Source: Candidatus Micrarchaeia archaeon
GTDB taxonomy: Archaea > Micrarchaeota > Micrarchaeia > Anstonellales > J096
Direction of reading: 5' to 3'
Length of the DNA stretch: 27,076 nt
NCBI GenBank assembly: GCA_041500405.1
Contig: JBGQMB010000012.1
Location: forward strand, 1-27,076
Shown here: positions 18,001 through 21,000 of the stretch, in pieces
How the letters are laid out: every line of letters begins with the position of its first letter
Position numbering within the stretch: the first letter of the stretch is position 1
Made by a program: the position numbers

Positions 18001-21000
18001 CGACGTCGGTCTTGTGGATTATCTTCTTGGTCCAGGCCTTGAGCACAAGCGGATAGCCTATCTTCTCCGCTGCCCTGAAAAGCTGGGCCTTTGTGTCCAC
18101 GATTTCATAAGGGGCGACAGGTATGCCGTTCCTTTCAAGGATTTCAAAAACGTCCATAAGGCAGTATCGCAGGCAGGTATTAAAATGATAACGGCATTGT
18201 CCGCCGTGCCAATAGCATTTTTAACCTCTTTTATTCACAATAAGCCCATGCGGCTTATGGAAAGGAAGCCAATAAGGGAAATGCGCATCAGGCTCAAGGC
18301 ATTGTTCAGCCGCAGCAAGGCGCGCTTTGAGAAAAACGGGGCTGCCCAGGGGCATCTTGACCTCAAGCTTTTCAATGAATGCAAGGTCGCGCAGCAGGAG
18401 GACGCCAGGGCCAAGGAGGTCAGGCGACTGCTGAAGCAGGGCGCAAACCCGGACGTATCGCTCAACTGGGACGGCGTTTCTGCGCTTGCGCACGCTGCGC
18501 AGAACGAGTCCTGCAAAATCGCCAAATTATTGCTTAAGGCCGGCGCAAACCCGAACGCAAGGGACAAGAATGGATGCACGCCGCTCATGCATGCAACAAA
18601 ATACGTAAATGAGACTGCGACAGCAAAGATTCTCCTTGAATATGGCGCAGACCCGAACGCAAGGGACAACAACGGATGGACGCCGCTCATGTACGCGGCG
18701 TCCAAGGGCGGCCCGGAACTTGCGAGGCTCCTGCTTGAGCGCGGCGCATTCATGACCGCAACAAGCAGAAAGGGCAACACCGCGCTGATGCACCTTGAGA
18801 AAAGGCACGCGAAATGCACGCTCCCCCTTGGCGGATATGGGGATCAGGAAATCTATGACGGCATAATCAAAGTTTTCAATGAGCACAGGGCAAGGACGCT
18901 GAAACGCATCACTGGCTTTGCCTTCGCGAAATTCAAGTCAAATTTCAGGGAATGCGCGAGCCATTAGCATTTTTAAACACTTTTGCGCACAAATCCCCCA
19001 TGCAGGAAAAGCCGGTTTTAAGCAATGGCGCGCCCCAGGAGACGAGGAAGCCAGTGCCGGACAAGGAGGCCGCCCAGAGGGAGCTGGACTGCGGGCTTGT
19101 GGATGCAGTGATGGAAGGAAGCCTTGAAAAAACAAAAAGCCTGTTCAGCATGGGCGCAAGCATCGACGCCAAGGACTATTGGGGCAAGACCGCGCTAATG
19201 TGCGCCTGCCTTTATGGCCATGAAAAAGTCGCAGCGTTCCTTGTTGAAAACGGCGCAAGCATAAACGCGAAAGACAAGGGCGGTTGGACGCCGATGATGT
19301 TTGCAGCGCGCAATGGATTCACCAACGTTGTAGGGCTGCTGAGTGACAGGGGCGCGGACGTTGGTTCAAGAGACGAACGCGAGTACACCGCACTCATGCA
19401 CGCGATTGAGGAGGAGCGCATCGACACTGCAAGGCTGATGATCAGAAAGGGCGCCGACCCGAAAACGCAGATAAGGAACATCGGGAGCCTACTGCCCAAT
19501 GCCGCAAAAATGGGCATGTACAAAATCGTGAAGTTCGTTGTAGAGGAAGGCACTGACATCGACTCGCTTGACACTGATACGGTTGACGGCAAAGGCATCA
19601 CCGCGCTGGCCTATGCAATACACAAAAACGATTTTGGCATGGCCAAGTTCCTTTTGAAGCACGGCGCAAACATAGACAAGGCAGACCAGTATGACAGGAC
19701 ACCGCTGATGCGCGCAGTGGAACAAGGCGACGCAAAGGCAGTTTCCTTCATTTTGGAGAACGGCGCCGACCCGGACTTGGAGAGCAACATCGGAAAGACC
19801 GCGCTCATGATGGCGGCAAGGGACGGAAACCTTGAAATGGCCAAGCTGCTTGTGGAAAAAGGCGCATCCATTGAAATTGAATGCAAAAGCGCGCTGATCG
19901 AGGCGCTTGACAACAGGCATGACGACATCGCCAAATTCCTCATAATGAACGGCGCCAATGTAAATGCAAAGGACGGGTACGATGTCACCGCGCTGATGCA
20001 CGCCTTGGCAAACGGGAACATGGCAGAGGACAAATTTGAAATACTCATGCTCCTTGTGGACAAGGGCGCGGACATAGGCGCAAAGAATTCGAGAGGAATG
20101 GATATCATCGACCTGGCCATGAATTACGCCTCGTCCATCCCGCTGCCGTCCTCGGCACATTCCGCTGGTGCCACGATGTGGTTGAATGGCATAAAACAGA
20201 ATGCAATACGGCTTCAGAAGTTTCTTGAGATGGCCGGAGCATTCCAGCCCCTCATAGGCAAGGGGCCGCTGAGCGAGCTTGTGCTCAATTTCGCGGATTG
20301 CACCATGCAAAGAAAATAGCCGTCGGTTTTTCCCTGGGCTTTTTCTAAAATAGTTTTTCTTTCCGCAGGAGCTTTCTAAAGTAGTTTCTTTTTCCCCAAG
20401 TGCTTTTTCTTCGCAAAGAAAAAGGACTTTTGGGCTTCCTGGTTCGCAATACATCGCCAAACAGGGCCTTTTCCGGCGAAGCTCCATCCTGCGGCTCTCC
20501 CAAACAGGAAAATACGCCTTATGGCTGCTCCTTCCGGCCTGACCAGTTTCGTCGCATCTTCGCTATTGGAAGACAGGACTTCGACGCCCCGACGGGAAGG
20601 ATGCCTGGCAAGGCACTACTCCCCAGGCCTTCGGTCCGCCTAAAGGGGATTTGCGGTGCTGGGACCCCTAGCCCCAACCTAGCCCATTCAATTGAGAGGG
20701 GAAGATATTTTAAATCCGCGCCATGCCCCTGAAAACGGACCAGTCGCCCTTCGGAAAGTCGTTGTCCCAAAGACCTGTCAAACAATCCGGCCTTTTTTCC
20801 ACAACATCCGGAATATTGTTCAGGACGCCGAGGCTGGAAATCTGGATATCCGATACGAACATGAGCACAATCTCGCTGCATGCCATGTCCGCAATCTTCA
20901 TTATCGCATCGCTTATCGCATGCGGCGTTATCAGCTTGCCATTGAAGCCGTTGCGCAGCCACGTTGTCATTGTCTTCGGGTAGTCGCTTTCAAAGTTCGA

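Follow-up and report, generated by a model that had tools for sequence, protein, structure and literature searches.

The window, a 27,076-nucleotide stretch of contig JBGQMB010000012.1 from a Candidatus Micrarchaeia archaeon, carries an SRP (7S) RNA gene on the reverse strand (Table 1). In a search of the whole genome with the archaeal model RF01857, this locus was the sole SRP RNA match (70.4 bits, E 3.3e-15). The alignment spans all 317 model positions, and the 40 positions that make up helix 6 correspond to 0 bases in the window RNA. The predicted fold is a single unbranched helix running from the 5e motif into helix 8 (z -3.04; 0 of 200 shuffled sequences were equally stable). Since helix 5 is continuous with helix 8, helix 6 is absent, and no helix 6 with a GNAR tetraloop was found in the window RNA. 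An earlier note on this DNA had described an SRP RNA that keeps the Alu domain and helix 8 and lacks helix 6, and both the empty model positions and the unbranched fold agree with it.

Table 1. Features of the SRP RNA locus (positions in the window)
Feature	Position	Strand	Description	Basis
SRP (7S) RNA gene, about 260 nt	20428..20689	-	Comprises helices 1, 5 and 8 and the Alu domain; helix 6 missing	RF01857, RF01854, fold
Alu (small) domain, helices 2-4	20630..20680	-	Helix 3 loop (20670-20664) pairs with helix 4 loop (20652-20641)	
Helix 6 branch point of other archaea	20553..20563	-	Here helix 5 is stacked on helix 8; deletion point between 20558 and 20557	
Helix 8, asymmetric and symmetric internal loops	20512..20557	-	Predicted site of the SRP54 M domain	Alignment, fold
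Symmetric loop, 2-bp apical stem and GGAA tetraloop (20535-20532)	20526..20541	-	One pair fewer than in other archaea	
TATA-like box	20707..20714	-	About 20-25 nt upstream of the SRP RNA, at the 3' end of the upstream gene; putative promoter	Sequence reading
T-rich run	20415..20423	-	Just past the SRP RNA 3' end; candidate archaeal terminator	Sequence reading

Helix 1 and the Alu domain with its helix 3-4 loop pairing are present. The loop-loop contact consists of five pairs, formed in all 58 aligned RNAs and with compensatory changes at three, and in the stretch joining helices 5 and 8 compensatory changes were seen at 14 of 14 pairs (58 RNAs). The 5e motif is formed by three unpaired bases in helix 5, flanked on either side by a covarying helix of six pairs. 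Invariant alignment columns concentrate in helix 8, which has both internal loops and a GRRA tetraloop; its apical stem, CC-GGAA-GG, has two pairs instead of three. The UGUNR motif between helices 3 and 4, a feature variable among archaea (PMC2905702), is absent from the window RNA, and some relatives have one. Open reading frames that overlap the gene, such as 20400-20732 on the forward strand, were taken as incidental.

In a search at gathering thresholds, the window RNA was reported as RF01854 (Bacteria_large_SRP) with 90.3 bits over the full length of the model (positions 1-256). It lies above the gathering score of that family (60) and below that of RF01857 (96.5), which explains why the RNA had been filed as bacterial, as the earlier note recorded.

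Helix 6 is missing throughout Micrarchaeota

RF01857 located an SRP RNA in 132 of 150 Micrarchaeota genomes, and 27 of the 150 pass the gathering score. Helix 6 was missing in 109 of 109 Micrarchaeota RNAs examined. Among the 107 with a recognisable helix 8 motif, the start of helix 8 falls at nt 144-164 in 105, compared with nt 196-199 in the non-DPANN controls (six of eight, those with a recognised motif), and 106 have an apical stem with one pair fewer, so that the short stem described for this genome extends to its relatives.

All 36 Micrarchaeota RNAs longer than 274 nt were inspected as possible carriers of helix 6, and none has it: 29 contain an insert 3' of helix 8, two an insert in the tetraloop and four an insert in the Alu domain or helix 5, while one has none. 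The 300-nt relatives, one of which the earlier note had left as ambiguous, belong here, with surplus bases that sit 3' of helix 8. Twenty genomes missed by RF01857 were searched with an Alu pattern, and matches were obtained in eight. Split or permuted SRP RNA genes were considered for these genomes and rejected: the hits in G037, G042, G094, G107 and G135 and a stretch of G102 are whole genes lacking helix 6, the match in G045 runs off the contig end, and the remaining matches are due to chance. Twelve genomes stay without explanation. A helix 8 pattern gave two matches in viral contigs, neither with an Rfam match.

The longer Micrarchaeota RNAs contain intron-like inserts outside the helix 6 slot; the window RNA is uninterrupted. 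We tested the inserts for a BHB motif, defined as a 4-bp central helix flanked by 3-nt bulges whose removal restores the conserved RNA. A looser definition (three of four pairs) was also satisfied by 33 of 73 RNAs without inserts, and a length-matched test was used instead. For the inserts 3' of helix 8 (site B), all four central pairs form in 25 of 29, against 0.9% of shuffles, and three of four in the remainder; the outer helix at the insert BHB sites is mostly weak or absent. Removal of the tetraloop inserts (site A) restores the helix 8 motif in both cases. In an RNA library of a relative, one contig is missing precisely the 15 nt, but it could also come from an intronless gene; RNA runs searched for L064 contained at most 0.08 of its words in any run. 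In Aenigmatarchaeota, the long RNAs of G533, G554 and G576 have 5'-strand inserts that cmscan assigns in part to the helix 6 slot or that are situated close to it, and we read these as introns.

SRP19 is not detected

PF01922 gave no match at E<=10 in this genome (86% complete) and exceeded the Pfam cut-off in 0 of 301 Micrarchaeota genomes, compared with 44 of 50 genomes of non-DPANN archaea (E 1e-11 to 1e-26). The earlier note's picture of a phylum lacking both helix 6 and SRP19 thus stands on the larger sample. Since PF01922 misses six of the 50 control genomes as well as Sulfolobus acidocaldarius, a diverged SRP19 might escape it, a reservation already raised in the note. A custom profile built on the control SRP19s recovered 30 of 30 left-out members at E<=2.2e-20. 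Its best value was E 1.5 in this genome and E 0.015, within a 583-aa frame, in the 301 genomes (a search with no positive control inside it). The weak matches (13 at E<=1 with Pfam, five genomes at E<=0.1 with the custom profile) were rejected because they were partial, scattered over families and in many cases located in long frames or frames with stops. In 11 of 30 control loci srp19 lies directly downstream of rps8e; no SRP19-like frame follows rps8e in this genome or in five relatives. A search of this genome for Gar1 also found nothing.

It is very unlikely that an SRP19 too diverged to detect is present, or that another protein has taken over its role. The gaps in the profiles and the fast evolution of DPANN proteins (this genome's SRP54 shares about 50% identity with that of most relatives in the phylum) speak for such a hidden protein, but the tip of helix 6, the main SRP19 binding site, is gone, and no credible match was found in about 600 DPANN genomes or at the rps8e site. 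An independent arCOG survey moreover gives 0% for SRP19 in each of its 12 DPANN lineages (PMC13473441 Supplementary Data 25). The negative literature result of the earlier note has to be divided: the absence of SRP19 is already in print as a table row, unremarked in the main text of PMC13473441, whereas for the loss of helix 6 no prior report was found in the literature searched, which took in PMC7203096 in part and had subscription literature outside it.

SRP54 and FtsY are archaeal

Both SRP54 (433 aa) and FtsY (373 aa), which the note had listed as present, are encoded in this genome, and their best matches among solved structures are archaeal. For SRP54 the archaeal proteins gave E 6e-91, compared with 1e-73 for the best Ffh; an SRP54 tree rooted on FtsY resolved no separate outgroup. 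These proteins argue against replacement of the SRP RNA of the DPANN ancestor by a bacterial large SRP RNA through horizontal transfer. The higher score of the window RNA on the bacterial model (90.3 against 70.4 bits) and the bacterial-consensus stem UCC-GGAA-GGA of many DPANN RNAs would fit a transfer. However, the stem sequence varies freely. The archaeal model gives the slower-evolving DPANN RNAs 147-177 bits, near the 171-201 bits of the helix-6-bearing Hadarchaeota, and they are classed as archaeal. DPANN RNAs reach 177-181 bits on this model despite the deletion. We regard such a transfer as extremely improbable. For the slower-evolving DPANN RNAs the model scores lean towards an archaeal origin, and a bacterial one for the window RNA has so far found no support.

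Helix 6 and SRP19 in other DPANN phyla and Hadarchaeota

The earlier note presented the double loss as a trait of the phylum. It does run throughout Micrarchaeota but is not confined to them, as helix 6 is also missing from SRP RNAs belonging to the Woesearchaeota phylum and to Aenigmatarchaeota, and SRP19 (PF01922, E<=0.01) was found in 0 of 201 and 0 of 101 genomes, respectively. The double loss in two further phyla means that it most likely predates Micrarchaeota, and it is probably DPANN-wide, as judged from RNAs of three DPANN phyla. An epimerase search aimed at further DPANN phyla yielded mainly bacterial or unnamed proteins. The apical stem has three pairs in 88 of 88 recognised RNAs of these two phyla; of these traits, the 2-bp stem alone is specific to Micrarchaeota.

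In Hadarchaeota SRP19 was detected in 0 of 66 genomes (the custom-profile search having no internal positive control), and the RNAs retain helix 6 with a GNAR loop; a diverged SRP19 could escape both profiles here. One Hadarchaeota RNA (G657, 292 nt) has a shrunken helix 6. Median SRP RNA spans were 272 nt in the Woesearchaeota phylum (n=112), 274 nt in Aenigmatarchaeota (n=99) and 309 nt in Hadarchaeota (n=55). The distance from 5e to helix 8, a motif-based measure with a noisy anchor, was 40-43 nt in 91 of 104, 32 of 37 and 37 of 44 RNAs of the three DPANN phyla and 81-83 nt in 12 of 17 Hadarchaeota RNAs. The two losses can be separated, as Hadarchaeota retain helix 6 although SRP19 goes undetected in them.

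The same particle could have arisen by parallel losses of helix 6 and SRP19 in several genome-reduced DPANN lineages. SRP19 is undetected in Hadarchaeota too and is dispensable in Haloferax (PMC2905702). The shrunken helix of G657 shows that decay can begin independently, and PMC13473441 describes convergent reduction in DPANN and gives a presence probability of 0.3 for SRP19 in their ancestor. However, the deletion is of equal size in the three phyla, as far as the noisy anchor allows, and about 340 DPANN matches contain no clear helix 6 remnant, so that we consider repeated loss unlikely.

Alternatively, DPANN may retain an ancient particle of Alu domain and helix 8 common to large-SRP bacteria, with helix 6 and then SRP19 gained elsewhere and Hadarchaeota standing in between. 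The model of the bacterial large SRP is matched over its full length with few gaps, the three states nest within one another (no part, helix 6 alone, both parts), and an insertion in uS7 has been read as uniting DPANN with Hadarchaeota (bioRxiv 10.64898/2026.06.17.729505). A root of the archaea on or within DPANN is one published hypothesis, going by the abstract of PMC13473441. Reduced genomes, however, are expected to lose parts, and we find ancestral absence distinctly improbable. The states form a ladder of three steps, with neither part in DPANN, helix 6 alone in Hadarchaeota and both elsewhere. Read upward, with equally small probability, the 'archaeal-eukaryotic' S domain was built in two steps after DPANN diverged, which would give a structural marker of a root placed at DPANN, followed by Hadarchaeota. 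Read downward, SRP19 was lost in a common ancestor of DPANN and Hadarchaeota and helix 6 then in the DPANN ancestor; this order, doubtful in itself though likelier than the upward one, would lend independent support to the recently proposed DPANN-Hadarchaeota clade.

Discussion

The best explanation, which we hold to be probable, is a functional particle of SRP54 and RNA, archaeal by descent, that operates in the manner of the bacterial large SRP and stems from one early loss in DPANN. The window RNA would be the SRP RNA of the cell, forming with an archaeal-type SRP54 a one-protein particle that targets ribosomes to FtsY without SRP19. By analogy with bacterial Ffh, the SRP54 M domain may bind both internal loops of helix 8 directly. 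Archaeal SRP54 can bind RNA with no SRP19 present (PMC2905702). With helix 6 gone, there would be no packing of helices 6 and 8 for SRP19 to arrange; the helix 8 tetraloop would be free as in bacteria, and the Alu domain retained. Extrapolating from three phyla, SRP19 and helix 6 may have been lost once, early in DPANN. SRP19 probably went first, since helix 6 can outlast it, as seen in Hadarchaeota, and the apical stem would have been shortened by one pair later, in Micrarchaeota. Whether this was a loss or an ancestral absence depends on the archaeal root; secondary loss is likely. The convergence on the Bacillus-type particle proposed in the earlier note holds for the architecture, which is that of the bacterial large SRP, but as a claim of convergence it presumes secondary loss and hinges on the same root.

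Helix 6 and SRP19 have been reported from all archaeal subgroups in a review (PMC2905702), and the contact between helices 6 and 8 has been called conserved across archaeal and eukaryotic SRP RNAs without exception (PMC4605306). This rule does not hold in at least three DPANN phyla. They offer a minimal archaeal SRP found in nature, suited to studying how SRP54 is loaded and FtsY activated when SRP19 is missing. Rare as a structural character, the clean 40-nt deletion can be traced through every DPANN lineage as a test of monophyly, and together with the state in Hadarchaeota it bears on their disputed grouping and on the root of the archaea. The 2-bp stem, a signature of Micrarchaeota, moves the tetraloop relative to the SRP54 site. 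For annotation, most Micrarchaeota SRP RNAs fall under the archaeal Rfam threshold, and the window RNA is then filed as bacterial.

Comparison with known SRPs

The bacterial large SRP consists of the 6S RNA of Bacilli and Clostridia (RF01854) and Ffh. The helix inventory is the same (Alu domain, helix 5, helix 8, no helix 6), as is the single S-domain protein; here, however, the protein partners are archaeal, with SRP54 in the place of bacterial Ffh, and the apical stem is one pair shorter. With the canonical archaeal SRP (RF01857, SRP19 and SRP54, as in Methanocaldococcus jannaschii and Archaeoglobus fulgidus; PMC2905702), the window RNA shares helix 1, the loop-paired Alu domain, a long helix 5 with the 3-nt 5e bulge and the GGAA loop of helix 8, and the genome shares archaeal SRP54 and FtsY. 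It differs in lacking helix 6, and hence a GNAR loop or adenosine clamp, in lacking SRP19 and UGUNR, in its 2-bp apical stem and in a score below Rfam gathering.

Basidiomycete SRP RNAs with helix 8 insertions show a similar phylum-wide remodelling of the S domain, hidden from standard models, but keep helix 6 and Srp19; their inserts remain in the mature RNA (PMC4605306), which calls for caution in reading the inserts of the relatives as introns. The permuted, BHB-processed SRP RNA of Thermoproteus tenax, for which an ancestor with simple BHB introns has been postulated, has its BHB site at the tip of helix 8 and resembles only the relatives, as the window RNA is neither permuted nor interrupted; T. 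tenax also keeps helix 6 and requires SRP19 for SRP54 binding (PMC4731332). As far as the accounts in PMC2905702 and PMC6098224 extend, the srp19 deletion strain of Haloferax volcanii is an archaeal SRP that works without SRP19, but that strain is engineered and its RNA retains helix 6, whereas here both parts are gone naturally.

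Helix 6 is missing from the SRP RNA

The archaeal SRP RNA model RF01857 matched the window with 70.4 bits (E 3.3e-15), and a whole-genome search of the 916-kb, 86% complete genome, of which the window is contig C12, returned no second match. The earlier note had described this 262-nt RNA as devoid of helix 6, the SRP19-binding arm, and we arrived at the same result: all 40 helix 6 positions of the model aligned to no base, and the predicted fold (z -3.04) comprises helix 1, the Alu domain and one long helix that does not branch and terminates in helix 8. The filing of the RNA under the bacterial family was also reproduced, Bacteria_large_SRP (RF01854; 90.3 bits, all 256 positions covered) being the only family reported at gathering thresholds. 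The surroundings of the gene, which include two TPR-repeat and three ankyrin-repeat genes within 27 kb, are listed in the table.

Features of the window, and inserts and genes located elsewhere
Feature	Location	Strand	Remark
SRP RNA	window 20428-20689	-	sole RF01857 match
TATA-like box	~20-25 nt upstream of SRP RNA		read from sequence; putative promoter
T-rich run	just past SRP RNA 3' end		read from sequence; putative function
Ankyrin-repeat gene	18952-20319	+	SRP RNA neighbour
Gene with weak histidine-phosphatase match	20710-21459	-	SRP RNA neighbour
TPR- and ankyrin-repeat genes	window 74-3473, 17945-20319, 25928-26461
SRP54	L128:1051-2352	-	contig C16
tRNA-Ile (UAU)	C7:28381-28485		29-nt intron; ARAGORN
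3'-strand insert carriers	L048-L052, L054-L058, L060, L061, L063-L074, L076, L024, L040, L044, L047		families f10, f11, f12
Tetraloop inserts	L046 (G074), L045 (G139); SRP RNA nt ~157-205		45 nt
Other-site inserts	L515-L517		Woesearchaeota phylum
Other-site inserts	L445, L502-L514		Aenigmatarchaeota
Other-site inserts	L400, L573		Hadarchaeota
Other-site insert	L075		Micrarchaeota genome G017

SRP19 is undetected, whereas SRP54 and FtsY are present

The SRP19 profile PF01922 exceeded its cut-off in none of 301 Micrarchaeota genomes (completeness 90% or more in 176) and in 44 of 50 non-DPANN controls (E 1e-11 to 1e-26). These controls were reached by a tRNA pattern and selected out of about 100 loci so as to sample widely outside DPANN; in the search tool's separate control set, S. 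acidocaldarius was missed by the profile. A custom profile of 30 control SRP19s, which recovered each left-out member at E<=2.2e-20, reached a best E of only 1.5 against the 16,754 frames of the genome under study, and a 27-sequence profile reached 0.015, within a 583-aa frame, against the 301 genomes, in a search without a positive control of its own. The srp19 gene lies immediately downstream of rps8e in 11 of 30 control loci, and no SRP19-like frame was found after rps8e in our genome or in five relatives. The reported lack of detectable SRP19 in Micrarchaeota was upheld, neither PF01922 nor the custom profile giving a credible match.

SRP54 (433 aa) and FtsY (373 aa, contig C31) were found as the earlier note had stated, and the best structure matches of both are archaeal. 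Thirteen of the 15 taxon-named SRP54 homologues belong to Micrarchaeota or its subgroups and two are labelled 'Candidatus ainarchaeum sp.'; the RNA-binding segment of the protein aligns well with that of M. jannaschii SRP54. At residues ~236-250 the motif closing the G domain reads GKAGG, as opposed to AKGGG in M. jannaschii and P. furiosus.

The loss of helix 6 extends beyond Micrarchaeota

RF01857 detected SRP RNA in 132 of 150 Micrarchaeota genomes, exceeding its gathering score in only 27. We examined 109 RNAs. Not among them are two weak matches, which were inspected separately, and 21 whose length of 258-269 nt leaves no room for helix 6. (One genome, G029, flagged as unpublished, is included in the 150-genome and both 301-genome searches; no claim is made on it alone.) The median length was 268 nt, and 87 of the 109 RNAs had at most 280 nt. 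Helix 8 starts at nt 144-164 in 105 of the 107 RNAs whose motif was recognisable, and in the remaining two inserts lie further upstream; in the non-DPANN controls it starts at 196-199 (six of eight, those with a recognised motif). When 58 of 73 short RNAs were aligned, the structure of helix 5 running into helix 8, derived from the same alignment, was 92.7% paired (slid controls, 35-53%), with compensatory changes at 33 of 36 pairs. Inspection of all 36 Micrarchaeota RNAs longer than 274 nt revealed helix 6 in none, which rules it out as the source of the extra length; the inserts lie at other sites.

In the Woesearchaeota phylum SRP19 was found in 0 of 201 genomes and SRP RNA in 114 of 121, with 109 of 112 full matches no longer than 280 nt; in the three longer ones the symmetric loop is interrupted on its 5' strand by a BHB-type (bulge-helix-bulge) insert with 4/4 pairing. 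A further phylum is Aenigmatarchaeota according to its SRP54 homologues (10 of the 11 that have a taxon name); it yielded SRP19 in 0 of 101 genomes and SRP RNA, with a median length of 274 nt, in 99 of 101. All 26 of its RNAs above 280 nt were inspected and showed mostly Alu, tetraloop or 3'-strand inserts; in G533, G554 and G576 the inserts are on the 5' strand, within the helix 6 slot or close to it, and we read these as introns despite their position. The double loss thus holds throughout Micrarchaeota, as first proposed, but it is not confined to that phylum. The proposed shortening of the apical stem of helix 8 by one pair proved correct: the stem has two pairs in 106 of 107 Micrarchaeota RNAs and three in the other two phyla (88 of 88 recognised, 99 fetched). 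Because of the data from these phyla, helix 6 loss is placed in both DPANN clusters and the two-pair stem in Micrarchaeota only. The single three-pair stem (UCC/GGA; G077, L112) is either a retained older state or a reversal, and in G080 (L108) a GUAA loop sits atop a CG/CG stem.

Hadarchaeota combine an SRP19 count of 0 of 66 with SRP RNAs of at least 300 nt in 54 of 55. Nineteen of the 20 RNAs fetched (L560-L579) retain helix 6 in full, GNAR loop included, and the remaining one (G657) has a short stump; no SRP19-like frame was found after rps8e in five genomes, one of these loci being at a contig end. Since Hadarchaeota keep helix 6 without detectable SRP19, the two losses are separable; equally, a diverged SRP19 may escape the profiles.

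Inserts in SRP RNA genes look like introns

Below helix 8, the 3' strand carries an insert of 15-36 nt at one shared site in 29 of the 109 genes; G094, G102, G107 and G135 have similar ones. In 25 of the 29 its last four bases pair 4/4 with the four bases preceding it, with a 3-base bulge after each (shuffled inserts, 0.9% of trials), and the insert covaries with its flank (GCAT/GTGC in 12, GTAT/GTAC in 11, plus two other 4/4 pairings). Excision at the BHB cut sites leaves a 3' tail of 96-99 nt in 28 of the 29, compared with 95-102 nt in insert-free RNAs; the 29th match is incomplete. In 28 of the 29, too, shifted removals give on average a poorer fold than this excision. The candidate in both comparisons had been chosen by tail length. 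Related BHB-type inserts interrupt the helix 8 tetraloop in two genomes of different families, where their removal restores the canonical motif; the permuted SRP RNA of Thermoproteus has its ends at the same place. Judged from their sequences, the inserts look like tRNA-type introns. Two frames of the genome (352 and 158 aa; contigs C18 and C31, L558 and L559) contain a tRNA-splicing endonuclease domain. One RNA-library contig from a relative lacks exactly the 15 nt; it has 17 other differences and may derive from an intronless gene. Passages of PMC4605306 describe Basidiomycete helix 8 inserts kept in the mature RNA, and passages of PMC4731332 postulate that an ancestral SRP RNA contained simple BHB introns.

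Other intron-like inserts lie in the symmetric loop, tetraloop, Alu domain and helix 5, two in some genes. Genus g13 and G143 (L053, L059, L075, L062) have a small additional hairpin separating Alu helices 3 and 4, which in g13 did not match BHB geometry by eye; Aenigmatarchaeota show similar Alu expansions (among L520-L531). In several f10-f12 genomes a tRNA-Ser-like gene closely follows the SRP RNA gene (L044, L550-L553), two apparently interrupted in the D-loop. The predicted intron-containing tRNA-Ile of our genome has a UAU anticodon, uncommon in archaea. Nine Rfam matches on viral contigs to small-SRP or helix-8-like hairpins (L130, L137, L138, L140-L142, L145, L148, L150), one between two tRNAs and two sharing a contig, may be SRP-like RNAs carried by viruses or may come from host DNA.

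Discussion

Parts of PMC2905702 place SRP19 in all archaeal subgroups, alongside helix 6; neither 'Nanoarchae' nor 'ARMAN' is present in that text. The portion consulted of Supplementary Data 25 of PMC13473441, whose main text does not contain 'SRP', gives arCOG01217 (SRP19) as 0% for Hadarchaeota and for each of the 12 DPANN columns, and as 91-100% for the seven that remain; the presence probability is 1 in the archaeal and 0.3 in the DPANN ancestor (Euryarchaeota root). The absence of SRP19 is already in a published table, without remark; for the RNA half no publication was found. Our search of the open-access literature, covering PMC7203096 only outside the part that contains the terms, returned no report of archaeal helix 6 loss or an intron-split SRP RNA gene, and term searches for helix 6 loss in PMC7414124 (text and three supplements), PMC12892359, PMC10266531 and PMC11606122 were negative. 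A DPANN-Hadarchaeota clade has been proposed from a uS7 insertion (preprint 10.64898/2026.06.17.729505, SRP being unmentioned in the part consulted), and helix 6 loss is a scorable character for DPANN relationships. The finding is genuine and well controlled, a known machine in a variant form that is more widespread than first claimed, and it also offers an archaeal SRP that is naturally free of SRP19.

According to sections of PMC2905702 and PMC6098224, SRP19 acts as a clamp on helices 6 and 8, archaeal SRP54 is able to bind the RNA without it, and Haloferax tolerates its deletion. In the helix-6-less particle SRP54 would bind directly to the loops of helix 8, in the manner of Ffh. The bacterial helix 8 tetraloop, being free, touches FtsY and makes the complex form faster; if this contact holds here, the two-pair stem would shift it by one helical step. 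Anatomy, gene inventory and distribution are matters of observation, and taken with the presumed direct binding they suggest that the particle functions like the bacterial large SRP. It departs from the canonical archaeal SRP on two defining points, and although descent from the bacterial large SRP family is not supported on present evidence, it is that family which the particle would resemble in its working.
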